64,000 bases of DNA from Candidatus Omnitrophota bacterium (GCA_003154195.1 PMCS01000009.1:19014-83013), one strand, 5' to 3'; positions 3,572-58,394 are shown, counted from the first letter of the stretch. Notes: generated by a model not told the origin, from the letters alone. A program made the numbers and translations.

Positions 3572-4331
3572 CCAAACGTCGGTAAAGATTAAGGCACAGG
3601 ACGTAAATTTTTTTTACGGGAAACACCAGGCATTGAAAAATATAAAACTGGATGTTTTAGCCAATCAGGTTACTGCGATTATCGGCCCTTCGGGCTGCGG
3701 AAAATCTACCTTTATCCGGCTGCTTAATCGTATGAACGAATTAGTCTCCAATACTGTTTTAACCGGAAGAATTTATCTGGATGGGCAGGATATATTCGCT
3801 TCTTGCGTTGATTCAGTCGAGATTAGGCGGCGTGTCGGGATGGTATTTCAAAAACCCAACCCCTTTCCCAAGAATATATTTGAAAACATAAGTTACGCTC
3901 TCGAGGTTAATGGCATTAAAAATAAACAATTTGTCGAAGAAAGGGTGATAGAATCTTTCAAGAAGGCGGCGTTATGGGATGAGGTGAAAGACCGGCTTCA
4001 TGACAGCGCGCTAAAATTATCCGGCGGACAACAGCAAAGGCTTTGCATTGCCCGTTGCCTGGCGATCAAGCCGGAGGTGATTTTGTTCGACGAACCCTGC
4101 GCCAGCCTCGACCCTATTTCGACGCGCAAGATCGAAGAGCTGATTCTGGAGTTGAAAAAAGATTATACTATTGCTATAGTTACGCACAATATGCAGCAGG
4201 CGGCAAGGGTATCTAACTATACTGGTTTTTTTCTTTTAGGCGAGTTGATCGAGTTTGATAAAACTGAAACGATATTCAAGTCTCCCAAAGATCAGCGGAC
4301 AGAAGATTATATTACAGGGAGGTTCGGATAA
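3564..4331 (+). CDS. pstB: Phosphate import ATP-binding protein PstB (canonical; operon 1)
   Basis: Walker [11 protein letters not shown]-loop VFQKPNPFP, signature LSGGQQQRL, Walker B ILFDEP, H-loop VTHNM. Confidence 0.9.
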
Positions 4332-8403: not shown

Positions 8404-9143
8404 AAGTTGACATAAAAAATCTTAATATCTGGTTTGGTTCCGTGCATGCCCTGAAGCAGGTAAGCATGGTAATACAGGCTAACGAAATCTTAAGCGTAAT
8501 CGGTCCTTCCAACAGCGGTAAGACAACTTTTTTAAGAACGCTTAATCGTTTAAGTGATTTAAACCAGAATTTTAGAATGACCGGAACAATAAAGCTTGAA
8601 CAAGAAGATATCGGGAATATTGATACGGAATTATTGCGTAAAAAAGTAGGCATGGTATTTGCGCTGCCGCTCCCGCTTCCCCTGTCTATTTTTGATAATG
8701 TGGCTTACGGGGTAAGGATGCACGGCACGAAAAACAAGAAAATACTGAGAGAGATAGTGGAGGTATCGTTGAACGAAGCCTATCTCTGGGAAGAGGTAAA
8801 AGATAGGTTAAATGAATCAGCTTTTAAATTGTCCGGGGGCCAGCAACAGCGTTTGTGTATCGCTAGAACCCTTGCCGTTGAGCCGGAGGTAATTTTATTT
8901 GACGAGCCCTGTTCGGGGCTCGATCCTATATCCACCGCAAAAGTAGAAGATGCCCTGGTTAAGCTAAAACAAAAATACACGATAGTCCTGGTAACCAACA
9001 ATGTAAAGCAGGCAGCCAGGGTTGGTGATATGACCGCTTTCTTTTTAGGCGGCGAACTTATTGAACTGGATAAAACAGACAAGATTTTTACCGCGCCGCA
9101 AGACAAACGCACGGATGGTTATATCAGAGGAAAATTCGGATAA
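8397..9143 (+). CDS. pstB: PstB paralog with degenerate catalytic motifs (operon 2, first of two)
   Basis: Walker [10 protein letters not shown] (atypical), Q-loop Gln replaced (VFALPLPLP), H-loop His replaced (VTNNV), but canonical LSGGQQQRL signature and Walker B. Confidence 0.8.
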
Positions 9144-9184: not shown

Positions 9185-9940
9185 CTGGCCAAGATTATAA
9201 CTAAAAATTTAAACTTTTGGTACACAACATTCCAGGCCTTGAAAAATGTTGGCTCAAGCATAGAGGCAAACAGGATTACCGCTATAATCGGGCCTTCGGG
9301 ATGCGGTAAATCTACTTTGCTTAGGGTCTTCAACCGTATGAATGACTTGATTGAAGGCGCGCGTACGGAAGGAGAAGTTCTCATCGACGATACTGATATA
9401 CTGGATCCCCGCACAGATTTAGTAGTTTTACGTAAAAAAGTAGGGATGGTATTCCAGAGGCCTAATCCGTTTCCGCTATCAATATATGAAAATATTGTTT
9501 TTGGAGAAAAGATTCACGCGGATCGCTTAACAAGAGATAAATTAGATGAAATTGTTGAGAGAAGCCTGGGGGATGTTCTTTTGTGGGATGAATTAAAGGA
9601 TCAGCTTAATGAACCGGCCATGAGGTTATCATTAGAGCAGAAACAGAGACTTTGCATAGCCAGGCTTATTGCCGTTAAGCCCGACGTATTGTTAATGGAT
9701 GAGCCTTGTTCTACTTTAGATCCGCAGGCAACAGCAAGAGTCGAAGAATTAATGCGTGAACTAAAGAACAGATATACTATAATAATAGTTACTCATAATA
9801 TGCAGCAAGCAGCACGGGTTTCCGACGATACGGGTTTTATGCTTTTAGGCGAACTGATAGAGTTTGGTAAAACACATGAAATATTTACCGCGCCGCAAGA
9901 CAAACGCACGGAAGATTACATTACCGGAAGGTATGGATAA
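9185..9940 (+). CDS. pstB: PstB paralog with canonical Walker A/Q-loop/H-loop but degenerate signature motif (operon 2, second). Proposed CTG start at 9185; the first canonical-type start in frame is TTG 9239
   Basis: [23 protein letters not shown], signature LSLEQKQRL. The conserved N-terminal beta-strand [21 protein letters not shown] is encoded upstream of the TTG, with no ATG/GTG/TTG in frame after the 9071 stop; perfect SD aaggagg at 9172-9178. Confidence 0.7.
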
Positions 9941-11652: not shown

Positions 11653-11767
11653 AATGAAACAAGGGGATTAGGGCATCGGGGGATTAGGGCATCGGGGGAT
11701 TAGGATTTGGAGATTAGGATATCCCGCATCGGGTTTTTTCCTGATTCCCCAATTTCCCAATTCCCAA
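11653..11767 (+). repeat. Tandem G-rich 16-bp repeats (GGGGATTAGGGCATCG x2 plus degenerate copies) followed by cccaatt repeats
   Basis: Direct repetition visible in the sequence. Confidence 0.5.
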
Positions 11768-15999: not shown

Positions 16000-16048
16000 G
16001 TTTTTCATCCGCGAAGCGGATGAAAGATATTTTTTGCGGAGCAAAAAA
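16000..16048 (+). promoter_or_regulatory. Conserved bipartite element, copy 2 (catccgcgaagcggatg + atattttttgcggagcaaaaaatat) ending at the ATG of the SPOR gene
   Basis: See 10806 and 47659; extended -10 tgctataat at 15957-15965 upstream. Confidence 0.4.
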
Positions 16049-20301: not shown

Positions 20302-20682
20302 ACTGAAAGAAGAAAGTATCCGCGAATAGCTAAATCCTTGCCCTTAAAGATTTCCGATGACGGCCAATTCGATATCGTCACGGAAACTAAGAATATCAGC
20401 GCCAACGGCGTATATTGCTGCGTAAGCAAACCAATTAAAAACTTGACCAAATTAAGCATAATATTACTTATACCCTTCCAGAAAAACAAAAAAGAAAGTA
20501 TTCGAAAAGTAAAATGCGAAGGCATCGTGGTGCGGGAAGACGAAGCGGAAAACATAAAGGACAACGGAAAACACCCTTATCGCATCGGCATATTCTTCAA
20601 TAATATAAAAGAACGCGATAAAAAAAGTCTTGCTACCTATATCGACTCGCATCTGACGGCCGGCAGCAATACCCCCATTTAA
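20302..20682 (+). CDS. PilZ-domain protein (second copy); ORF is open from 20206
   Basis: ERRKYPR and NISANGVY motifs. Confidence 0.65.
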   Translation, partial: TERRKYPRIAKSLPLKISDDGQFDIVTETKNISANGVYCCVSKPIKNLTKLSIILLIPFQKNKKESIRKVKCEGIVVREDEAENIKDNGKHPYRIGIFFNNIKERDKKSLATYIDSHLTAGSNTPI

Positions 20683-21233
20683 TGCTTTATAAGGCTTACC
20701 CCTTACCCGTAAAATTCGTCTGCGCTTTTATTTATTCCGACCCCGCCGTTTATCAGCAGACAAAATCGATCATGGAAAGGAAATTCGGCCGGGTAGACTT
20801 TGAAAGCCAAACCATCGATTTTAATTTTACCGACTATTACGAAAAGGAAATGGGTAAAAACCTGACAAGGCGGTTTATTGCTTTCACGAAATTAGCCCGG
20901 GCCGATAATTTTGTGAAAATAAAAGATTTTTGCCTGAAACTGGAAAAAAAATTCGCGCGGAATAACAAACGAATCATAAATATCGATCCCGGCTATCTGA
21001 CCGAAGCAAAACTGGTGCTGACCACGACCAAAGACTTCCACCACCGGATATATATCGGAAAGGGGATTTTTGCGGAGGTCACGCTCAGTTTTTGTAAAAA
21101 AGAGAACAACTTCCTGGATTTTCCCACTACTTTTCCCGACTACCGCACGCAAAGATATAAAGACATTCTTTTAGGCATCCGCTCGACCTATAAAGAACAG
21201 TTGAAACTTTTGCCTTCCCGTAAAATCAATTAG
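20682..21233 (+). CDS. Conserved hypothetical protein (DUF4416-like)
   Basis: LPVKFV…INIDPGYL…HRIYIGKGIFAEVTL pattern recalled for that family; no function inferable. Confidence 0.45.
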   Translation: MLYKAYPLPVKFVCAFIYSDPAVYQQTKSIMERKFGRVDFESQTIDFNFTDYYEKEMGKNLTRRFIAFTKLARADNFVKIKDFCLKLEKKFARNNKRIINIDPGYLTEAKLVLTTTKDFHHRIYIGKGIFAEVTLSFCKKENNFLDFPTTFPDYRTQRYKDILLGIRSTYKEQLKLLPSRKIN

Positions 21234-21274
21234 CCGAAAGGATACATAAAGAAATAATCTTGGGAAATTCGGGG

Positions 21275-21496
21275 AAATTCGGGGGACAGCTACCATAATT
21301 ATCCTTGACACCCTGTCTGCTTTTGCTACAAATTCGGGGGACAGCTACCATAATTATCCTTGACACCCTGTCTGCTTTTGCTAAACTTACCCCATGCCGA
21401 GAATGGCCAGAGCAAATTCGGGGGACAGCTACCATAATTATCCTTGACACCCTGTCTGCTTTTGCTAAACTTACCCCATGCCGAGAATGGCCAGAG
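21275..21496 (+). repeat. Tandem array U,(U+V),(U+V) immediately upstream of and overlapping the RAYT start; U carries the REP-like motif GGGGACAGCTACCATAATT; V duplicates the RAYT 5' end including ATGCCGAGAATGGCCAGAG
   Basis: Three near-identical direct copies at 21275, 21330 and 21415. Confidence 0.7.
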
Positions 21497-22143
21497 TAGT
21501 TATACCCGATATACCCCACCATATAATCCAAAGAGGTAATCGCCGTCAGCCGGTATTCTTTTCTGATGCCGATAAAAGAGCCTACCTGGATTATCTTCGT
21601 CTACATGCAAAGCCGGCCGGAATAAGCATCTGGGCATATTGCCTGATGGACAACCATGTACATTTAATCGCTGTGCCTAGGCATGAAGACAGTTTTGCCG
21701 ATGGCTTAAGCGAATCTCACAAACGTTATAGCCGTATGGTAAATTTCCGGGAAAACTGGCGCGGCCATCTCTGGGAGGGGAGATTCAAATCTTACCCATT
21801 GAATGAATTCCATCTATACGCGGCGATAAGATACGTTGAAAGAAATCCCGTACGCGCTAAAATAGTAAGACAAGCCTGGCAATACCCCTGGTCAAGCGCT
21901 CAATCTCATGTAAAGAAGGAAAAAGACAGTATTGTGGATAATTGTTTTATCTCTGATGAAATAAAAAACTGGGCAGAATATATCGCCCAAGAAGACAACG
22001 ACAACGATCTGGTACTATTCAGAAAACATTCCAACACAGGGAGGCCGCTGGGGGATAATAAATTCATCGATCTTCTTGAGGGGATAACCGGACGCATATT
22101 ACACAGGAAAAAACCCGGCCCAAAGATGGTCAAGGACAAATAA
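21478..22143 (+). CDS. IS200-like Y1 HUH transposase / REP-associated tyrosine transposase (RAYT), copy 1
   Basis: MPRMARVVIPDIPHHIIQRGNRRQ…, HUH motif DNHVHLIAVP, catalytic Tyr in AIRYVERNPV. Confidence 0.8.
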   Translation: MPRMARVVIPDIPHHIIQRGNRRQPVFFSDADKRAYLDYLRLHAKPAGISIWAYCLMDNHVHLIAVPRHEDSFADGLSESHKRYSRMVNFRENWRGHLWEGRFKSYPLNEFHLYAAIRYVERNPVRAKIVRQAWQYPWSSAQSHVKKEKDSIVDNCFISDEIKNWAEYIAQEDNDNDLVLFRKHSNTGRPLGDNKFIDLLEGITGRILHRKKPGPKMVKDK

Positions 22144-22160
22144 TTATGGTAGCTGTCCCC
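22142..22160 (+). repeat. Inverted copy (aattatggtagctgtcccc) of the 19-mer directly after the RAYT1 stop
   Basis: Exact reverse complement of ggggacagctaccataatt. Confidence 0.6.
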
Positions 22161-22200
22161 AGAATTACCAGAATTACAAAGACCTTATAACAGTCCCCAT

Positions 22201-23145
22201 ATGATAAATAGCCGAAAAATCAAAGCCTTAGAAAAAATAGCCAAACCCCTCAACGACCGCCTTAAGGAATGCGACCTTTGCCCCCGAAACTGCAAAATCG
22301 ACCGCTTTAAGCAAAAAGGGTTCTGCAGCGTAGGCAGCCAGATGATTATCTACACGGCTTTTTTACACACCGGCGAGGAACCGCCGTTAATAACCGGGAA
22401 GGGGAGCGGAACGATATTTTTTTCCGGCTGTAACCTGAAATGCTGCTACTGCCAGAATTATAAATTTTCCCACACCCCGGAAGGCCGGATAGTAAGCGAG
22501 GAGGAGTGCGGCCGGATCATGCTTAACCTGCAAAAAAAAGGCGCCGCCAATATCAACCTGGTAACGCCCACGCATTACCTTCCCTTGATACTCAATGCAC
22601 TGCGGATAGCGTTTAAGAACGGCCTGGATATACCCCTGGTTTATAACACCTCCGGGTATGAAAAAACGGAGATCATCCGCCGGCTCAAAGGTATCGTCGA
22701 CGTCTACCTTGCCGACGTAAAATACATCTCCGGCGAAACCGCGGGAAAATATTCCCGGGCGGAAAACTACCCGTTTTACAACCAGGAAAGCCTGCGGGAA
22801 ATGTACCGGCAAAAACCCGCAGTTTTAGACGCAGACACACTGAAGGAAGGGTTAATCGTACGCCACTTGGTTTTACCGGGCCACAGCGAAGAAACCCGGC
22901 AGATTCTTTGCTGGATTAAAAAAAATATGCCCGACGCGCTGGTCAGTATAATGTTCCAATACCAGCCGTATTTCGAAGCCGCAAAATATCCGGAAATAAA
23001 CCGGATAGTAAGTTTAGAAGAATTCACCCGGATAAAAGAACTGGTCGACGAACTTGGCCTTCCCGGATGGGTACAGGAATATACCCCTGAAGAAAAACTG
23101 GCCGGAGTCTATTTCGAACCCCTTTCCGAGGATTTGTTGGAGTAA
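22201..23145 (+). CDS. Radical SAM enzyme (AmmeMemoRadiSam-system / PFL-activase-like)
   Basis: CNLKCCYCQN CxxxCxxC cluster, upstream CDLCPRNC…FCSVG motif. Confidence 0.7.
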   Translation: MINSRKIKALEKIAKPLNDRLKECDLCPRNCKIDRFKQKGFCSVGSQMIIYTAFLHTGEEPPLITGKGSGTIFFSGCNLKCCYCQNYKFSHTPEGRIVSEEECGRIMLNLQKKGAANINLVTPTHYLPLILNALRIAFKNGLDIPLVYNTSGYEKTEIIRRLKGIVDVYLADVKYISGETAGKYSRAENYPFYNQESLREMYRQKPAVLDADTLKEGLIVRHLVLPGHSEETRQILCWIKKNMPDALVSIMFQYQPYFEAAKYPEINRIVSLEEFTRIKELVDELGLPGWVQEYTPEEKLAGVYFEPLSEDLLE

Positions 23146-27400: not shown

Positions 27401-28926
27401 AGAGCAAGACGCAACGGCGATATTCCATGCAGTTGACTTGCGATGTCGGGAAATATTCCTAATAATACTCCGGACAAATTATTCGCTATGCCAAGTAAGT
27501 CATGAGTTTTCGTATGGGGCTTGATGATAAAATCAAAGGGTGGTAATTTTTTTTGCCACGGGATGTTTACAGATTTGGCTTTGCCTGGCGTTTTTTGGCC
27601 TGCATCGGGCGAAGATACGCTTTTATCCTTGTCTACAGCTCCTAGCGCTCTGCCTACTTCTTTACCTGTTAACTCTTCCTGCGTCAAAAACGCAGACCCA
27701 ACAGCCTTTAGTCTCCCTAAGCACGAATTTGCTGCCGGGTTTACGCCGACCTGCAAATTTAATTCCACGCGCATTGTTTCTCTAAAAGCCTCCGCTCCAA
27801 ACACCATCCCTCCAGAAGTATACCTGCGCCTTACCGGGTTTTTCCCCAATCGTTCTTCTTTCTTTACGCAGTTATATACTCCTTTTTTATAGGCTTCTAC
27901 GTAGAGGTTAAAAATCTTATCTTTTACGTTTTTGTCCTTTAGGTCTATCCCGGATATCTTCCCCTTATCGATGTAGGATTTATAGAAGGAATCTTTGAAT
28001 TTCTTACGGAACCAGACGGCGAGGACGAGAGAGTTATAGATCTGGCGCAGCGTGGCAAAGTTCTTGCCGTGGTTGACTTCCTGGTTGACTTCAGGGAGGA
28101 TGACTTCTTTGAAAACCCTTGACGCAATTTCTTCAGTTTTTCCTTTTTCGTCCTTCGTCCTTCCTCCCTCGTCCTTCTTTGTTTTTTCATCCTTCATCCC
28201 TCGTCCTTCATCCTTCGGTAGATTACGCTGCTGCGCCACGTAATCCCTCTCATGCATGACTTTTAAGCTCGCCTCGAGGACAAACGCCGTGTCTCCTTTC
28301 TCATAGACGACGCTCTTCTGAGGCATGACCCAAACCTTGTTATAAGTATTAACATCCTTCATCCCTCGTCCTTCATCCTTCATTACTGCCGTTACGCTGT
28401 CCCAGTATCTCTTTCCCAGTTCTGTTCCGGGGTAGGTCAAAGAAGAAACGAGTTGCTTCAGGCAGTAATCCTGGCCTAACAGATCTTTGCCGAGATCGGT
28501 CAGGGCTAAATTGTCTGAAGCAACACGTTCTCCTTCAAACGGTGACAGGTTGACCCATAACTCTTCCTGGGGAAGAGTTAACCCTGCCAGAAAATACTTG
28601 ATCAGACGGTCGGCTTCTTCTTTAGATACGTCATCTTTATTGGCAGTATCGACGAGGAATTCGATATTGAGAGGGTTTTTAGGATTAAAACGTAAGCCCT
28701 TCAAGACCGGGTAAGAGAATTTTTCGGATACTGAAAGGAGTTTGGTGGGTAGAGGGAGATTATAGACACTAGACGCCGGTTGCGGCGCGGGCACGACTTC
28801 GGATAAAGCCAGTGGGCTGAGCGAAGAAAAAAATACCGCCAAGGCCAGAAATACGGCGATAGCTTTGAAACCCGAGGACGTACGGCAATACGCCCCTCCG
28901 TTTTTTCGGGGGATTATTTGGGTCAT
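24439..28926 (-). CDS. 1495-aa multidomain membrane protein: TM, KDEG-repeat low-complexity segment, two GHKL/HATPase_c-like domains, second TM, transglutaminase-like Cys-His-Asp protease-like domain, TPR repeats
   Basis: N-box/G1/G2-like blocks (LDNAIDGI…VSDNGIGI…RYGGTIEFDT; HLVDNAVDAV…LSDNGAGI…GRGYATRS); KANCIGGTQLFLVLARAL…WTLHIA…VIVDLAN; TPR-like LELYRKALKSDPNN…. Confidence 0.65.
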   Translation of the reverse strand: MTQIIPRKNGGAYCRTSSGFKAIAVFLALAVFFSSLSPLALSEVVPAPQPASSVYNLPLPTKLLSVSEKFSYPVLKGLRFNPKNPLNIEFLVDTANKDDVSKEEADRLIKYFLAGLTLPQEELWVNLSPFEGERVASDNLALTDLGKDLLGQDYCLKQLVSSLTYPGTELGKRYWDSVTAVMKDEGRGMKDVNTYNKVWVMPQKSVVYEKGDTAFVLEASLKVMHERDYVAQQRNLPKDEGRGMKDEKTKKDEGGRTKDEKGKTEEIASRVFKEVILPEVNQEVNHGKNFATLRQIYNSLVLAVWFRKKFKDSFYKSYIDKGKISGIDLKDKNVKDKIFNLYVEAYKKGVYNCVKKEERLGKNPVRRRYTSGGMVFGAEAFRETMRVELNLQVGVNPAANSCLGRLKAVGSAFLTQEELTGKEVGRALGAVDKDKSVSSPDAGQKTPGKAKSVNIPWQKKLPPFDFIIKPHTKTHDLLGIANNLSGVLLGIFPDIASQLHGISPLRLALDYPVLWIGDDEYGTFQISLSGALDNAIDGIAKEATRQETEYKGMIEVSFSVEHDRLVIKVSDNGIGITVDTLGRLFSDEPVSTKKRREDETLGRVGTDVRNYYGDALVNRYGGTIEFDTYHHQDGAHVMRRYRSHNEVSVGHRITAGTTVTWTIPFGKKVAASPTLFRPERAVPLGSPTAAGSIAANGAASINFPIFTEKFPYMPPGALSTDARQIYLGNAGDKKIVADILTILRDSQLSSVDKGRVASIVGHLVDNAVDAVYERIDNITDDSVRGQVSGKAAISFFIQRDSQTGGTRVILSDNGAGIRKDIFQSWVNGEYRTSKPLGRGYATRSILDTAKGNFEISFVSERENDTGYQFTQYQNGKRIMDVSNENVIGTTVIITFPRDQLSPAAASPVDMSRRGLFLFGLLAGVAAVAGKVVKDKLRILGLTDAGHELLSSQPPQRSYRSEPITAANRAGDSEHEGALQNVRQQFEMRKQLEDFGYDKKSRQAIVHELVNLFPDLNTYRFSPGGDEAGRLKELYAAIKGKFNIESGVYPFDLNVVLEVKKANCIGGTQLFLVLARALRYDAIPMEVVRHNRRGWTLHIASLVRLPGGRSVIVDLANSEVGISQPFILYDLFHPYGVYLKANDAIRQDLPQQIRLGVNDGMIRSYLAVAHRDDAYITPYPEQLELYRKALKSDPNNIHAYMGISVTYTSIGIIHGAERFLTEGTYFNKALGALRKALELSPDSLDVLDGFRELYRDTHMPEKEAEVYARKIKIIEREIPAVYRNADEKISPTPFNEEKKGLVFDYLKLVELYHEIGEPNQERSAAIKALAILEKLVPTDYHYTGGKKGIGYSRAVSILEYYKNMADLYRLVGNKKQAEKYSALHRSLEEEVTPFNGQFMGRGNSPVATVKTKSAASPLPLTGSTDLTDTTGSTPLGGIDVTANNFNLETKGEGLDKAITSSPLNPNFDRLQFVITFMKDVSAKETIDELAGKAWGK
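28150..28390 (-). repeat. In-gene tandem 7-mer repeats (tccttca/tccttcg on the + strand) encoding (M)KDEG(R)G repeats
   Basis: Seen in the sequence at 28150-28240 and 28355-28390. Confidence 0.5.
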
Positions 28927-32900: not shown

Positions 32901-33010
32901 AACCACATGATTGCACAGATTTCACTGAAAAATATAAATTCCGATAATGTAAAAAACTGAAAATCTTAAAAATCTGTGAAATCTTGTGAAATCAGTGGTT
33001 GCAGTTTTTA
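32901..33010 (+). repeat. MITE-like ~110-bp element with terminal inverted repeats aaccacatgatt.cacagatttcac; copy 1
   Basis: Matches 49398-49509. Confidence 0.5.
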
Positions 33011-45664: not shown

Positions 45665-45730
45665 AACTTAATTTCTTAATCCGTGAAAATCTGCGTAATC
45701 TGTGGATGAAAATATTTTTAGTTTTTAATT
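45665..45730 (+). repeat. Partial copy of the ~90-bp ATCTG-triple-repeat element (…aatccgtgaaaatctgcgtaatctgtggatg…)
   Basis: Matches the cores at 54254, 55111 and 58351. Confidence 0.4.
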
Positions 45731-47658: not shown

Positions 47659-47717
47659 TACACATTTTCATCCGCGAAGCGGATGATATTTATTTTTTTA
47701 CGAAGTAAAAAAATAAT
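47659..47717 (+). promoter_or_regulatory. Conserved bipartite element, copy 3 (catccgcgaagcggatg + ttatttttttacgaagtaaaaaaataa) ending at the ATG
   Basis: See 10806 and 16000. Confidence 0.4.
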
Positions 47718-49397: not shown

Positions 49398-49509
49398 AAA
49401 AACTGCAACCACATGATTACACAGATTTCACTGATTTCAGATTGATTTTGTATTTTTTTACATTATCGGAATTTGTATTTTTCAGTGTAATCGGTGGAAT
49501 CTTGTGGTT
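49398..49509 (+). repeat. MITE-like element, copy 2 (inverted relative to copy 1)
   Basis: Shares aaaaactgcaacca…ttttttacattatcggaattt.tatttttcagtg…tgtggtt with the reverse complement of 32901-33010. Confidence 0.5.
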
Positions 49510-50563: not shown

Positions 50564-53410
50564 TTAAATACCGCAGGCGCTTTTAAAGGAGCAGTAGGAA
50601 CAGCGTTGTTCATCAGGAACAGCCACAAAATCCACTTCCGGATTGATAATCTCCTCGAAAATAAAATCCAGCGCCCGCAGGCACACCGTCATCACTTCTT
50701 CCCGCTGTTTCGCTTCCGCGGGACGGATAAAAGGAAGCAGGTCCAGGGTGCGGATATTGTAAAGCTGAGCGTTGACCTGTTTTCCGGGAAATTGGCGGGA
50801 AATAAAATAGTAATAAATCGGCAGTTGGAACGACTTCATACTCTCGCTGATATTTTGCCGGGTCAGCTCCATTTTGGAAAGCCCGGAAAGGCTCTTGGGT
50901 TGGACGTCGCTGGAACCGGTCTTATAATCGATGATAACAATCGAATCGTCGCGCAATTCATCGACCCGGTCGGCGGTATAGCCGAAAGTAACCTCGTGTT
51001 TGCTCAGTTTCATCACCCCTTCGATTCGCTCTTCCAGGGCAAGGATCTTCTTAACATCGCGCCGCTTCTCTTCTTCCAGGAATTTGCGCATCCGGTCCTG
51101 CAAGATCCCCCACAACAAAAACGAATCGGATTTCATCCTCCGCTTGATCGTCTCGTTAAAGCGCTTTTCCATCACGTTAAAAAAATAGCGGGAGAATTCT
51201 TCATCGATTATCGGTTGAACTCCTTTGAACTTACCGAGGGTTTCTTCCAGCAATTCGTGAATAAAAGTGCCGATACTATCAGCCCGCGGGTCATCAAGCA
51301 GCCCCCGCTTTTCTTTCAGCCCCAGGCAATAAGTATAATAAAATTTCAACGGGCAGGATAAATAAACATTCAGGCGGCTGGCGGAATAACGGTCGGCCAA
51401 TAACCGCGCAACCATCTCCGGGGTTTTCTTCGCGGTATTTTGCGGCAAACTCGGCGCCAGGTTAAACGCCGCGCGCTGCGGCTCCAGCACATCGAGCCGT
51501 CCCGTTTCCTTCTGTCTCTGCCAGATCAACTCTTCGACAAAACGGCTCTTTTCTTTCTCTTTGGTCTCCTCATAAATCAAATGGACGCGTTTAGCGCCGT
51601 TGATCAGGCGCATAAACTGGTAGCGCTGGATTTCCTCTTCTTTTTCCAGGCGGTTTATCCCCAACTGCAGCATCACTTCCCGCGGGATCAGCGGCTCGTA
51701 AATCTTAAGCCGGGGCATTACCGATTCATTTAAATCCAAAGCAATCACATTATCGAAATTAAGCGAACGGGTCTCAAACAACCCTAAAATCTGCAGCCCT
51801 TTAAGCGGTGAACCGGAAAACGATAAGAGTTCGCTCTTTATCTTCTGCAAAAAAATCAGCCACAGTTCTTCGGGATTAAACTTTTCATGCTTAAAACTTA
51901 ATTCCGCCAGCTCGTCCTTAACGTTAAAGAGTTTTTCCAACGCCTTAATATTAAACGGGTAATTGCCGATATAACTTTTCCGGCTCAGCGTGTCTAAAAG
52001 CGCTTCCAGCACTCGGCTAAATCCGGCAAAATCATTTGTCGCTTCCCAGCCGCGCAACACCGTATCGTGGACATATTTTAAAATCGCCCGGCAATCATCA
52101 AGGCTGACCTTGATCTCGCCGGCCTTTAAAATCTCCAGGGCCCCGCGGTAGATCACCGTTTCCTTCTCAATTGCTTCTAAATCAATGAATAAAGTTCCGC
52201 CGATATCCGATTCGATTTCACCGTCCAACGCCTCTTCCAATTTGTGGACGAGCACCCGCGTCGCCTCATGGCCAAACCCGGCGTCGATATTTTTGATCAA
52301 GGGATGGCGCATCACCTGCAGATAATCCCGCGCGTAGTATTTATCCCCCTTCTTACTCTCCACCGCCCGCACCAGATATTCGAACAAACTGCACACCACA
52401 CTGCGCTTTAACGGATAGCCCATCGATACATTAAACTCATCGACATTGGAAGAAATCTCCGACAACAACGGCACTACTGCTTCCGGTTGGGGCAGTAAGA
52501 TAAGGGTCTTCTCTTTATCGCTGATGGTGTTTATGATATCGCGGCAGATGCAGACCTGGGAGTGAAGGTCAAAGCCTTCATGCAAAGAAAGATTAACTTT
52601 GACGCTTTGACGCTTTGACGCGCTTAATGCGCCGGGAACAATTGAGGAGCCGAATAACTTGGCATTGTGGGCTAAAACTGGCCATTCGGCTTCGTCGCCC
52701 TGGAAAATACAGCTCCCCTTTCTCGAATCGAGCACGGCTTTAATAATCGCGCCCTCGGTGGCGTGGAGATAAAAAAAGTTACAGAACAATACCGCGTCGA
52801 AGTCATCTAAATTATTCCCGGCGGCCAGAGCGCCGGCCGCTGAATAACGCTTGCCGCGCGCCATCACGCCCTGCTTAGCCAATTCCTCATGATAAAGCTT
52901 GCGCAACACTCCCATCGACTCAAGAAGCTTATTAATACTCTCCGGAACATCAAACCCGATTTGCGCGCTGGCCTTGATCGAAAGTAACTTCTCATCGGGA
53001 ATTCCTTCCAAATCAAGCTGTTCGATGAACGAAACCACTTCCCGCGCCCAGGGCAAGAATTCATTAAAGCTTTTCTTCTCCTTTAACACCCCGGATGCGT
53101 TCTTCTTCGCCAATTTATACAAAATATAACCGGCATCTAAATCGGATATCCCGGCCAGCGGTTTCCCCTGCCCGACCAACCAATCGACAAAATCATCCAT
53201 GGAAAAAACCTTAGGCGGGACGAAACTGGTGCCGATTCGATTAGCGAGTGCTTTGCGCAAAAACAAGCCGGGACGTTTGCCGCCAAAGACACAGGCGACG
53301 CGGGAATAGTCGGTGGTCTTGCCGAAGCGGTCGAGAATGATATCCGCCAACCGCTCAATAAAATTCTCGCCGAAAGATAGGGTTATCGATTTAATATTAT
53401 TTGCGCCCAT
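50564..53410 (-). CDS. AddB-like PD-(D/E)xK nuclease-family protein with C-terminal Fe-S cysteine cluster; ORF is open to 53446
   Basis: C-terminal …IIDYKTG… nuclease motif and CSYCSFKSACG cysteines; 950-aa size typical of AddB/RexB-type subunits. Confidence 0.65.
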   Translation of the reverse strand: MGANNIKSITLSFGENFIERLADIILDRFGKTTDYSRVACVFGGKRPGLFLRKALANRIGTSFVPPKVFSMDDFVDWLVGQGKPLAGISDLDAGYILYKLAKKNASGVLKEKKSFNEFLPWAREVVSFIEQLDLEGIPDEKLLSIKASAQIGFDVPESINKLLESMGVLRKLYHEELAKQGVMARGKRYSAAGALAAGNNLDDFDAVLFCNFFYLHATEGAIIKAVLDSRKGSCIFQGDEAEWPVLAHNAKLFGSSIVPGALSASKRQSVKVNLSLHEGFDLHSQVCICRDIINTISDKEKTLILLPQPEAVVPLLSEISSNVDEFNVSMGYPLKRSVVCSLFEYLVRAVESKKGDKYYARDYLQVMRHPLIKNIDAGFGHEATRVLVHKLEEALDGEIESDIGGTLFIDLEAIEKETVIYRGALEILKAGEIKVSLDDCRAILKYVHDTVLRGWEATNDFAGFSRVLEALLDTLSRKSYIGNYPFNIKALEKLFNVKDELAELSFKHEKFNPEELWLIFLQKIKSELLSFSGSPLKGLQILGLFETRSLNFDNVIALDLNESVMPRLKIYEPLIPREVMLQLGINRLEKEEEIQRYQFMRLINGAKRVHLIYEETKEKEKSRFVEELIWQRQKETGRLDVLEPQRAAFNLAPSLPQNTAKKTPEMVARLLADRYSASRLNVYLSCPLKFYYTYCLGLKEKRGLLDDPRADSIGTFIHELLEETLGKFKGVQPIIDEEFSRYFFNVMEKRFNETIKRRMKSDSFLLWGILQDRMRKFLEEEKRRDVKKILALEERIEGVMKLSKHEVTFGYTADRVDELRDDSIVIIDYKTGSSDVQPKSLSGLSKMELTRQNISESMKSFQLPIYYYFISRQFPGKQVNAQLYNIRTLDLLPFIRPAEAKQREEVMTVCLRALDFIFEEIINPEVDFVAVPDEQRCSYCSFKSACGI

Positions 53411-53415
53411 ATAAT

Positions 53416-54000
53416 TCAATAAAATTGTCCTGTAGGGGCCGGGCATGCCCGGCCCGTTAATATCATGTCTGGTTCGCGATTCGGTGATTTAAGATTTATT
53501 ATGTTTTCATTATCATCAGCCCATTTTGCAGGGTTATTAATTATGTATTCACGTATATTTTTTAATGATTCTTCCGTACGTATATGATGGTCATAGAAAA
53601 AACGCTGCCATTTAAATGAATTATTATTCAATTTATTAATTTGCCGCGAAACGGCTGACTTGAACGACCCGATTATAACCGATAAATTGTTATTTTTTTT
53701 ATTTTGATTAACGGGACGGGCATGCCCGTCCCCTACAGGACTATTGATTATTATTATCCCATGTATATGGTTCGGCATAACGATATATTCATCTAACTCA
53801 ACGTTGGGACAATGGCACGCAATCTCTTGCCAGGCTTTCCTGACGATTACTCCATATTCGTTTAAAACCATGCAATCACCTTTAATCTGGCCGAATAATT
53901 CTTTGTGATTATACGTACAAATCGTCACATAATAATACCCTGCCTTGGAATAATCATATCCTTTTAATCTGATTGCTTTTCGTTTCGGAAATTCTTGCAT
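53416..54000 (-). CDS. REP-associated tyrosine transposase (RAYT), copy 2
   Basis: KRKAIRLKGYDYSKAGYYYVTICT…, HUH MPNHIHGII, catalytic Tyr IREYIINNPAKW. Confidence 0.8.
   Translation of the reverse strand: MQEFPKRKAIRLKGYDYSKAGYYYVTICTYNHKELFGQIKGDCMVLNEYGVIVRKAWQEIACHCPNVELDEYIVMPNHIHGIIIINSPVGDGHARPVNQNKKNNNLSVIIGSFKSAVSRQINKLNNNSFKWQRFFYDHHIRTEESLKNIREYIINNPAKWADDNENIINLKSPNREPDMILTGRACPAPTGQFY
53429..53460 (+). repeat. Perfect 20-bp GC palindrome GGGCCGGGCATGCCCGGCCC (with cctgtag… flank) inside the RAYT2 3' coding region
   Basis: Seen in the sequence; self-complementary. Confidence 0.65.
53708..53739 (+). repeat. Second perfect 20-bp GC palindrome GGGACGGGCATGCCCGTCCC (inverted partner of 53429-53460) inside the RAYT2 coding region
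   Basis: Seen in the sequence; encodes an SPVGDGHARPVNQ insertion between the HUH and Tyr motifs. Confidence 0.65.
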
Positions 54001-54151
54001 TTTATTGCGTAAATTTTAGCCACGAATCACGGTGCGAAGCGAAGCGTAGCCTCCCCTTAGAGACGAATTACGCAAATGGGATATTTTTCCCGCAAAGGCG
54101 CCCGCCTAGCCAAGCAAGGCAAGGCTGGCAAAGAACGCAAAGAAAAAAATC

Positions 54152-54166
54152 ATGGTAGCTGTCCCC
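54152..54166 (+). repeat. REP-like motif atggtagctgtcccc (= GGGGACAGCTACCAT on the RAYT2 coding strand) 150 bp upstream of RAYT2
   Basis: Same 15-mer as the RAYT1-associated repeats. Confidence 0.55.
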
Positions 54167-54210
54167 GAAATTTCCTCTGTGGTAAATATTTTTATCTTAT
54201 TCGCGAGATT

Positions 54211-54300
54211 TGTGTTATTCGTTGTTAAAATCTTTCCCCGCTTTTTCTTTCTTAATCTGTGAAAATCTGCGTAATCTGTGGACAAAATTTTTTGTTTTCT
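54211..54300 (+). repeat. ~90-bp conserved intergenic element with triple ATCTG core (aatctgtgaaaatctgcgtaatctgtggac) followed by an A/T tract; copy A
   Basis: Copies at 55081-55160, 58307-58394, partial at 45665-45730. Confidence 0.5.
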
Positions 54301-55080: not shown

Positions 55081-55160
55081 ATAATTCTCCTTCATCCTTC
55101 TTGCTTTACTCTGTGAAAATCTGTGTAATCTGTGGACAAATTTTTTTCGTTTTATCTATC
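55081..55160 (+). repeat. ~90-bp ATCTG element, copy B (ctctgtgaaaatctgtgtaatctgtggac)
   Basis: See 54211. Confidence 0.5.
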
Positions 55161-58306: not shown

Positions 58307-58394
58307 CGTGTAATTCGTTGTTAAATTTTTCTTTGCCCCCTTCTTTTTCTCAATCTGTAAAATCTGCGTAATCTGTGGTTAAAAATTATTGTTT
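58307..58394 (+). repeat. ~90-bp ATCTG element, copy C (caatctgtaaaatctgcgtaatctgtggtt)
   Basis: See 54211. Confidence 0.5.

Follow-up and report, generated by a model that had tools for sequence, protein, structure and literature searches.

The window analysed here is a stretch of 64,000 nucleotides from Candidatus Omnitrophota bacterium (GCA_003154195.1 PMCS01000009.1:19014-83013), and the locus under study within it is a TIRtron, a mobile element of about 0.9 kb in which one Y1/HUH tyrosine-transposase gene lies between TIRs. Together with its outer micro-repeats the element spans window positions 21262-22177. The genes and features considered below are as follows (a slash in a sequence marks a join):

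20682..21233, + strand: DUF4416 gene, the upstream neighbour, on the left side of the insertion site (Pfam DUF4416, 4e-56)
21262..21284, + strand: outer micro-repeat GGGAAATTCG, 2.3 copies (TRF), a tandem copy of the TIR outer 7 nt plus the G-run
21275..21328, + strand: U1, the outermost left-end copy, with TIR 21275-21302 and the -35 TTGACA; junction J1 (GCTA/C/AAATTC) abolishes its -10
21329..21412, + strand: unit 2 (C+U+V), with TIR, promoter-like site 21360-21387 and decoy ATG 21394; it terminates at J2 (CCAGAG/CAAATTC)
21413..21496, + strand: unit 3, the working left end, with TIR 21414-21441, promoter-like TTGACA-16-TAAACT 21444-21471 and the true start codon at 21478
21478..22143, + strand: TIRYT gene (RAYT1), encoding the 221-aa Y1/HUH transposase (motifs NHVH, LWEGRF and YVERNP; Pfam Y1_Tnp)
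22140..22169, - strand: right-end TIR (inverted-repeat search, 30 nt, 93%), overlapping the stop codon TAA at 22141-22143
22159..22177, + strand: outer micro-repeat CCAGAATTA, 2.1 copies (TRF), the mirror image of the left micro-repeat
22201..23145, + strand: radical-SAM gene, the downstream neighbour, on the right side of the insertion site (Pfam Radical_SAM, 8.6e-11; synteny)
53416-54000, - strand: second Y1 gene (RAYT2), 194 aa (motifs NHIH, WQ and YIINNP)
54129..54175, + strand: solo right-end remnant of a second TIRtron, a TIR with about 20 nt of gene 3' tail and without the gene

The arms of the inverted repeat found by repeat search (21273-21302 and 22140-22169) bracket the gene and are 30 nt long and 93% complementary; the flanking repeat that a sequence-only reading of this DNA had put at 19 bp is therefore real, and longer than claimed. 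The TIR itself, of about 28 nt (28-30 nt), is non-palindromic and has the 13-nt core GGGGACAGCTACC. A 15-mer, GGGGACAGCTACCAT, occurs five times in the 64-kb window, where 0.05 occurrences are expected by chance, namely at 21282, 21337 and 21421 on the + strand and at 22146 and 54152 (54152-54166) on the - strand, and all five copies contain GGGGACAG, which matches GGGGWSAS. A putative sigma70-type promoter-like site lies directly inside the left TIR and faces inward. No second ORF was found inside the element, and no Rfam family in the element region or in the whole window.

At the left end, TRF reports a repeat of period 55 in 2.0 copies (21275-21383) and one of period 84 in 2.0 copies (21329-21496), both with 100% matches, and a separate repeat search returned the same three copies. 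The left end is thus triplicated with the start of the gene included, as had been claimed, and the proposed order U,(U+V),(U+V) is borne out by the tokenised sequence, ...CTTGGGAAATTCGGGG[U]C[U][V]C[U][V]TAGTT..., in which GGGG directly precedes the first U. The array (21275-21496) reads U(54)+C+[U+V]+C+[U+V], and its copies are 100% identical. U has 54 nt (AAATTCGGGGGACAGCTACCATAATTATCCTTGACACCCTGTCTGCTTTTGCTA), and V has 29 nt (AACTTACCCC followed by ATGCCGAGAATGGCCAGAG), carries the -10 box and has as its gene part the first 19 nt of the 221-aa ORF, that is, the start codon and 16 bases. The description of V as the promoter-proximal region plus the first codons of the gene holds for the -10 box and these 19 nt, but the first copy in the array is without an intact promoter, having lost its -10 box at the junction; intact promoter-like sites (TTGACA-16-TAAACT with an upstream TG) are present only in units 2 and 3 (21360-21387 and 21444-21471). 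Unit 2 keeps a complete promoter-like site, which is therefore predicted to drive the 17-codon ORF (21394-21447) opened by the decoy ATG at 21394.

The junctions define how the units are bounded. J2, the 84-bp junction, shows zero microhomology, and the stretches of identity (L=8, core=13, R=63) add up to the period of 84 exactly. J1 and J2 have an identical right side, CAAATTCGGGGG, and the two extra units accordingly share a start 7-8 nt outside the core. With this common outer start they have different internal end points (54 or 83 nt inward), the longer unit (83 nt inward) taking in the promoter and six codons. J1, which belongs to the 55-bp event, needs one untemplated C or a later G>C change.

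Class of the transposase and nature of its repeats

The 221-aa protein matches Pfam Y1_Tnp (5.8e-10), and its sole relative in the PDB is the E. coli TnpAREP (4ER8, E=5e-4), with which the HuH and catalytic Tyr regions are aligned. The ORF carries the motifs DNHVHL (the NHVH of HuH), LWEGRF (the WE of the W-motif) and YVERNP (the Y-motif). Key motifs of TnpAY1 subclass 2.1 are NHVH/NH[YF]H, W[EQ] and YIELNP/Y[IV]HLNP (PMC6006769); because the three motifs and the length of the present protein fit this description, its assignment as a TIRYT of TnpAY1 subclass 2.1, Bertels group 1, is secure (subclass 2.1 corresponds to RAYT Group 1; Bertels et al., 2017, PMC5581495). For subclass 2.1, automatic and manual searches gave no REPs, and the authors equate the subclass with TIRYT and describe a conserved C-terminal HTH-like domain (Bac_DnaA_C / HTH_23 / HTH_28-like; PMC6006769). 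In the window protein a C-terminal tail of about 80 aa (86 aa) is present and conserved among homologues, and Pfam gives no HTH match in it even at E<=10. TIRtrons were described as a RAYT-like gene between long TIRs unrelated to REPs, many of these TIRs sharing GGGGWSAS and being found also as singles, dimers and groups (Di Nocera et al., 2013, PMC3733652). The architecture of RAYT1, a Y1 gene with non-REP TIRs, is repeated in L011, L015, L028, L035, L036 and L021, and in P. aeruginosa L079. The Omnitrophota element is an added member of this already described, little-studied TIRtron/TIRYT kind. TIRYTs (TnpAY1 subclass 2.1) form the second-largest branch of the Y1 HUH transposase family; in the searchable literature, where TIRYTs scarcely appear, we found no TIRYT biochemistry.

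The locus had first been labelled a REP-RAYT-REP unit. Of that label the RAYT-like Y1 gene and the inverted repeats stand, but the repeats are unfolded, low-copy and of the TIRtron type. When the repeats were folded as single-stranded DNA, neither the left end (z = +0.09, +0.90) nor the solo copy at 54152 (z = +1.23, +0.55) showed more structure than shuffled sequences; the right end is marginal (z = -2.57, -1.16), and only because the outer micro-repeat pairs with the AT-rich inner part. Copy number appears low: the 64-kb window has a single solo copy, and exact copies number 1-5 per Omnitrophota MAG. A search of 185,579 species genomes for the exact 19-mer GGGGACAGCTACCATRATT gave only 17 stretches; 11 of the 17 are in Omnitrophota MAGs, where the copies comprise full elements, truncated ends and TIRs standing alone. 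The TIR was accordingly rejected as a REP (negative hairpin test, no GTAG foot on a stem, apparently low copy number).

The second Y1 gene of the window, RAYT2, fits subclass 2.4 because of its NHIH, WQ and YIINNP motifs and its 194 aa. It has GTAG-footed hairpin REPs of its own at 53432-53455 and 53713-53736 (-10.9 and -9.6 kcal/mol; z -3.2 and -3.6), one of which sits in frame within the RAYT2 gene, an arrangement known for subclass 2.4 (PMC6006769). No similarity between the RAYT1 and RAYT2 proteins was detected by BLASTP. The 15-mer had also been reported at RAYT2, and it does recur there, at 54152, as the fifth copy in the window, so that the motif is present away from the element; RAYT2 has its own REPs, however, and the 15-mer nearby belongs to a decayed right-end remnant of another TIRtron and is not RAYT2's repeat. 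At this locus a 49-nt fragment aligns to the right end and the last ~20 nt of full elements (80%, blastn), and no TIRYT coding remnant was found beside the solo copy by tblastn.

A classical REP-RAYT-REP (REPtron), in which a domesticated single-copy RAYT had seen BIME-like proliferation of REPs on its 5' side, would draw on the RAYT-like protein, on the letters GTAG within the repeat (GGTAGC), on the one further copy elsewhere in the window and on the clusters of the core in many metagenomes. We nevertheless consider it very improbable. The repeats are non-palindromic and apparently low in copy number; the protein scores 53.3 bits with NCBIfam REP_Tyr_transpos (NF047646), under the cutoff of 80; the class defined by its Y-motif and W-motif is the one reported without REPs; the pair of genuine GTAG REPs in the window goes with RAYT2; and, as detailed below, homologues of 63-78% identity do not share synteny, and relatives show an empty site. 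For annotation this means that a RAYT between inverted repeats should not automatically be named a REP system.

Insertion site, homologues and array states

Homologues of 63-78% identity lie in four unrelated contexts (a zinc-finger gene/BaxI, the inside of a type II secretion operon, AbiEii/TraG, and an integrase in a 1.55-Mb genome), every one bracketed by TIRs of the same kind, and homologues down to 37% identity (37-78%) share these ends in unrelated contexts. The 63% homologue has a co-varying TIR, GGGGACACAACAC, and the TIR of L021 carries GGGGACAC as its GGGGWSAS match. In most homologues the -35 TTGACA lies 9-10 nt inside the 15-mer; the TIR-to-TTGACA spacing of unit 3 is repeated in L011, L028, L033, L035, L036 and L038, and the overlap of right TIR and stop codon in L011, L015, L028 and L021. 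Truncated and solo ends are present in other MAGs, and a second end, 98.9% identical, occurs in the same MAG (L035/L037).

The nearest relatives outside the population, L077 and L078 (DUF4416 65% identical), have no Y1 gene at the site. Their synteny is M50 - DHQ synthase - PilZ - PilZ - DUF4416 - radical SAM, and the DUF4416 and radical-SAM genes overlap by 22 nt, with nothing between them. Because these syntenic relatives have an empty site, the window element is an insertion at the junction of two formerly overlapping operon genes. Within the population no empty-site allele was found, all contigs with an identical DUF4416 protein also holding the element. A search for target-site duplications in six full elements gave L015 as the one significant case: there a 57-bp direct repeat of the target flanks the element (score 102 against a shuffle maximum of 30), which sets the termini outside the core by 5-11 nt on the left and by 7 nt on the right. 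The candidate target duplication in the window, (A)TAGCCGAAA at 21230-21239 / 22207-22217, is not above the shuffle background.

The identical protein, in the same synteny, is encoded in at least 15 further independent contigs, and the array was seen in three states:

State A, [U][V]: L003, L004, L005, L008, L010 and L046 (6 assemblies)
State B, [U]C[U][V]: L001, L002, L007, L042, L047 and L048 (6 assemblies)
State C, [U]C[U][V]C[U][V]: the window, L009, L043 and L045 (4 assemblies)

L045 stops exactly after the second V, and L006, from the same sample, begins inside U. Where ungapped comparison holds, 0-2 SNPs in up to 6 kb separate the flanks from those of the window; in L001 and L007 the register is lost at N runs or an indel. 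Homologous exchange in B could not give the junction CCAGAG/CAAATTC of state C, and recombination between identical repeats could turn C into either B or A. Across this near-clonal natural population the number of array copies appears to differ.

The state tracks the assembly project, WOOD18 giving B, MEGAHIT k141 mostly A and JGI mostly C, so that the assemblers themselves could account for some of the apparent polymorphism. If this were carried to the array as a whole, the array or its copy-number variation would be a product of short-read assemblers that expanded or collapsed repeats, a view that could appeal to the correlation of state with project or assembler and to the one sample whose contigs break exactly inside the array (L045/L006). 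We give this little credence. The three-copy state was recovered independently four times, comparable arrays are present in the 24.3-kb record of P. aeruginosa and in many unrelated contigs, and the 55-84-bp units fit within a read and within k=141, so that each state has to be backed by spanning k-mers of its own. That the array might be an assembly artefact private to the window, a concern raised when it was first noticed, is unlikely, since at least three further metagenome contigs (L009, L043 and L045) were independently assembled with state C.

Origin of the array

Tandem duplication anchored at an element end is found elsewhere in the family. At the right end of L067 (76% identity) there are five copies, in units of 24, 25, 46 and 59 bp with differing lengths of the gene 3' end. 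In L061, L065, L073 and L055 the tandem units are clean or almost so, with an outer boundary 6-10 nt from the core, the L065 junction holding 4 filler nucleotides (CAGT). In P. aeruginosa NZ_CP116719.1 (L079), a plasmid-collection record listed as linear and of 24.3 kb, homologues of 36.6% identity have perfect 32-bp TIRs (AAAGGGGACAGATTTATTTTCCCTACTCTAAT, which contains GGGGACAG) and duplicated left ends with periods of 77 and 65. Arrays of the exact 13-mer core were found at 26 metagenome loci of 36-72% GC; a literature search for this core returned no relevant match. Short repeats also lie at the outer edges: at other loci, 34 of 93 distinct core copies have at least one extra copy of their own outer 6 nt + GG upstream, where 2.1 are expected, and the outer sequences are lineage-specific (AATTCC, AATAAT, AAATCT, AGTTCC, TATTCC and others). 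We take the outer micro-repeats to be micro-duplications and not a conserved site. Because the same junction geometry recurs in relatives, we conclude that end-anchored, inward-variable tandem duplication is a property of the element family.

Two sets of candidates were set aside. Core doublets in L054, L056, L059, L062 and L074 have a spacing of 53-54 bp and flanks without similarity; the doubled left end of L054 and several of the 53-54-bp doublets were rejected as duplications on account of these dissimilar flanks. The N-terminal extensions of P0019, P0060 and P0104 were rejected as read-through of arrays, being translated TIR and micro-repeats and not duplicated gene starts.

Our preferred reading, to which we assign a probability of roughly 0.55, joins the TIRtron identity of the locus to two successive end-anchored duplications, with the transposase as their most likely cause, and to the loss of copies by recombination. 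What was called a triplication of the left end would consist of two successive end-anchored tandem duplications, each extra unit starting at the element terminus, 7-8 nt outside the core, and running 54 or 83 nt inward. A nick made by the transposase in one strand, at the TIR's outer edge, would leave the enzyme bound to the 5' end; brief synthesis from the free 3'-OH would follow, after which the displaced 5' end would be joined again to the nascent one. In a variant of this scheme, a left-end fragment cut at an internal pseudo-end would be re-inserted at the terminus. Identical copies would later be lost by homologous recombination, which would explain the one-, two- and three-copy states in a near-clonal population.

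The case for the transposase, here most likely the agent of duplication, is built on where the junctions fall, and the mechanism is inferred from their positions. The outer boundary of the array, 7-8 nt from the core, agrees with the terminus set independently by the L015 insertion. The causes proposed at the outset included replication slippage and abortive transposition; simple slippage is disfavoured for the 84-bp unit because of its zero microhomology, and an end-directed event akin to abortive transposition fits best. The nick site, the strand and the polarity are likewise inferred, from junction positions only, and, the ends being inverted repeats, orientation relative to replication gives no inference on the strand that would be cut. 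GC skew changes sign near 12 kb.

Some observations sit less easily with the transposase. Fillers, as in J1 (C) and L065, are also typical of host illegitimate joining, and the short outer micro-repeats could come from slippage on G-runs. Possibly, then, the array arose by host illegitimate recombination or by template switching at a replication obstacle, either a TIR-bound protein or pairing of LE and RE in single-stranded DNA, with the transposase in a non-catalytic role and with copy number shifted by unequal recombination. The fillers (C in the window, CAGT in L065) and the micro-repeats bounded by G-runs are typical of slippage and illegitimate joining, identical repeats expand and contract readily, and boundaries at the edge of a bound protein would also appear end-anchored. 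Against this stand the zero microhomology at the 84-bp junction, the fact that two independent events used exactly one outer boundary, which is the terminus defined in L015, and a pattern common to left and right ends and to lineages of 36-72% GC. We consider an origin by host processes less likely, though it is a serious alternative. The 57-bp target duplication of L015 is a separate matter, explained neither by the transposase model, because HUH 'peel-and-paste' transposition makes no target duplication, nor by host illegitimate recombination.

Selection could also have a part. The array might be kept as useful, the extra promoters and the decoy start tuning or phase-varying the transposase or read-through into the radical-SAM gene, with copy number under selection. 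Since the insertion separated two translationally coupled genes, expression downstream would, on this account, have to come from the element; there are two intact promoter-like sites rather than one, in addition to the 17-codon decoy ORF; and copy number varies with 0-2 SNPs in comparable flanks. The arrays of relatives, however, lie also at right or solo ends, with no promoter involved, and usefulness would account for persistence and not for origin. We regard a selected array as distinctly improbable.

A broader proposition, which we put forward tentatively and hold to be rather doubtful, is that TIRYTs may catalyse a new 'nick at repeat edge, extend, rejoin' reaction that makes tandem copies of their own termini. 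If so, the products would range from 9-bp micro-repeats to 84-bp units with a promoter and the start of the gene, and the reaction would act as a hypervariable switch on transposase expression and would also be what gives rise to clustered TIR/REP-like arrays across phyla; the junctions would then map the TIRYT cleavage site in vivo for the first time, ~7 nt outside GGGGACAGCTACC. In any event, the locus and its relatives add clear evidence of TIRtron insertion, in the form of an empty site in syntenic relatives, and well-defined termini. The recurrent footprint of end-anchored tandem duplication predicts where, and on which side of the TIR, the enzyme acts, and this prediction of cleavage is directly testable, the P. 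aeruginosa homologue, WP_033954923.1, offering a tractable host. The added value thus lies in junction footprints that predict a cleavage position and, possibly, in a hypervariable promoter-bearing end.

Comparison with known systems

The element shares with the IS200/IS605 family (IS608, ISDra2) a Y1 HUH enzyme and ends set by enzyme-specific cleavage sites a few nt outside a recognition element. IS200/IS605 elements have subterminal hairpins, no TIRs, a Y...Q motif and often a tnpB partner, and make no target duplication, whereas the present element has TIRs, no hairpins, YVERNP and no second ORF. With the REPtron of E. coli TnpAREP it has in common the HUH/Tyr core, a gene between inverted copies of a repeat that is found elsewhere too, clustered repeats, and an enzyme proposed to cut and rejoin at repeat edges. 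REPs, however, are GTAG-footed hairpins present in hundreds of copies, and the associated gene is single-copy and vertically inherited; here the repeats are unfolded and rare, and the gene moves between contexts.

The closest likeness is to subclass 2.1 (RAYT Group 1) and to the TIRtrons. The protein shares with the former NHVH, WE and the Y...NP motif (YVERNP against YIELNP/Y[IV]HLNP), an extra C-terminal region, the lack of REPs, a patchy distribution and occurrence on plasmids; it differs in its length (221 aa against a median of 238), in having R and not L as the fourth residue of the Y-motif, and in the lack of a Pfam HTH in its C-terminal 86 aa. With the published TIRtrons (PMC3733652) the locus shares a RAYT-like Y1 gene, long non-REP TIRs with GGGGWSAS, a TIR that either overlaps the gene ends or keeps a short, constant distance to them, and a low to moderate number of TIR copies that occur as singles, dimers and groups. 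It departs from them in its host phylum, Omnitrophota, and in a 13-nt core, GGGGACAGCTACC, that is exactly conserved although the L054 protein is just 38% identical. Moreover, the left-end copies carry a promoter and the first codons of the gene, and their number appears to differ between members of a near-clonal natural population.

The second Y1 gene of the window and its REPs

RAYT2 is the second Y1 gene of the window, and its sequence fits an assignment to subclass 2.4 of TnpAY1. The gene and its two REPs, which are mutually inverted, are as follows:

53416-54000, - strand: RAYT2, 194 aa, motifs NHIH, WQ and YIINNP
53432-53455, + strand: RAYT2 REP, GTAG-footed GC-rich hairpin
53713-53736, - strand: RAYT2 REP, GTAG-footed GC-rich hairpin

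These are the only copies of this REP in the 64-kb window. One of them lies inside the gene as an in-frame insertion; the other, inverted, is found at the gene 3' end, where it also overlaps the predicted start of a 960-aa ORF (50564-53446). Between the inverted REPs (53423-53740), the translation of the + strand is similar to the RAYT2 protein, itself encoded on the - strand (tblastn, 34.5% over 113 aa, E=2.6e-7), a likeness that could be due to an inverted internal duplication or to a composition effect.

At another locus (L061, 61-150 and 329-532), a decayed TIRtron end, formed by an array of three cores and a 30-aa gene fragment, directly adjoins a fragment of a subclass-2.4 RAYT, as in the window. 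The two cases may reflect a common insertion preference or a coincidence.

Doublets and composite clusters of the TIR core

Doublets of GGGGACAGCTACC, two direct copies 53-54 bp apart, occur in GC-rich metagenome contigs (L051, L054, L056, L059, L060, L062, L070 and L074) and are otherwise unrelated in spacer and flanking sequence. The arrangement looks like a conserved spacing and not like a recent duplication. In L054, the doublet makes up the left end of a TIRYT gene that shares 38% identity with that of the window. One composite cluster is present at five places (L063, L064, L066, L071 and L072) in a single large-genome assembly (contigs Ga0207690_10000001 to _4; 0.75-0.81 Mb, 69% GC). It consists of four direct and two inverted core copies followed by a terminal, promoter-like TTGACA..TATACT site, and no TIRYT gene was found near the cluster at any of the five places.

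Other repeats of the window

GAAAATCTGCGTAATCTGTGGA represents a separate, intergenic family, with four copies in the window against 0 expected. This family, the pieces related to it and the remaining repeats are located as follows:

45685-45706, 54261-54282, 55115-55136 and 58358-58379, all + strand: GAAAATCTGCGTAATCTGTGGA
32914-32928 and 49420-49434: pieces related to the GAAAATCTGCGTAATCTGTGGA family
9087-9115 / 9884-9912, 16002-16023 / 47665-47686 and 28188-28216 / 28353-28381: other exact repeats, 22-29 nt long, among them TTTACCGCGCCGCAAGACAAACGCACGGA and TTTTCATCCGCGAAGCGGATGA
11663-11704: GGGGATTAGGGCATCG, a repeat with a 16-bp period

A 54-aa in-frame insertion (translation ..KITQIILRRCSNLCNLI..) sets the TIRYT homologue P0006 (281 aa) apart from P0004, and looks like a repeat of the GAAAATCTGCGTAATCTGTGGA kind. 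The 16-bp-period repeat lies near the maximum of the cumulative GC skew (about 12000), before which the skew is positive and after which it is negative, a switch in sign resembling that at a replication terminus or origin.

Surroundings of TIRtrons at other loci

Three TIRtron copies are found in P. aeruginosa (L079, NZ_CP116719.1; 14239-14931, 16538-17230 and 22170-22862), surrounded by orphan modules of a toxin/immunity-like kind, with DUF637, EndoU, deaminase and endonuclease genes, and a segmental duplication spanning about 5.6 kb includes two of the three. The TIRtron of L015 is inserted in a secretion operon, between T2SSC and the next gene, and 57 bp of target DNA is directly repeated on its two sides (2840-2910 and 3690-3750), with two differences. 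This repeat is far longer than the usual target-site duplications, and a flanking repeat of this sort is unexpected for the peel-and-paste transposition of HUH elements.
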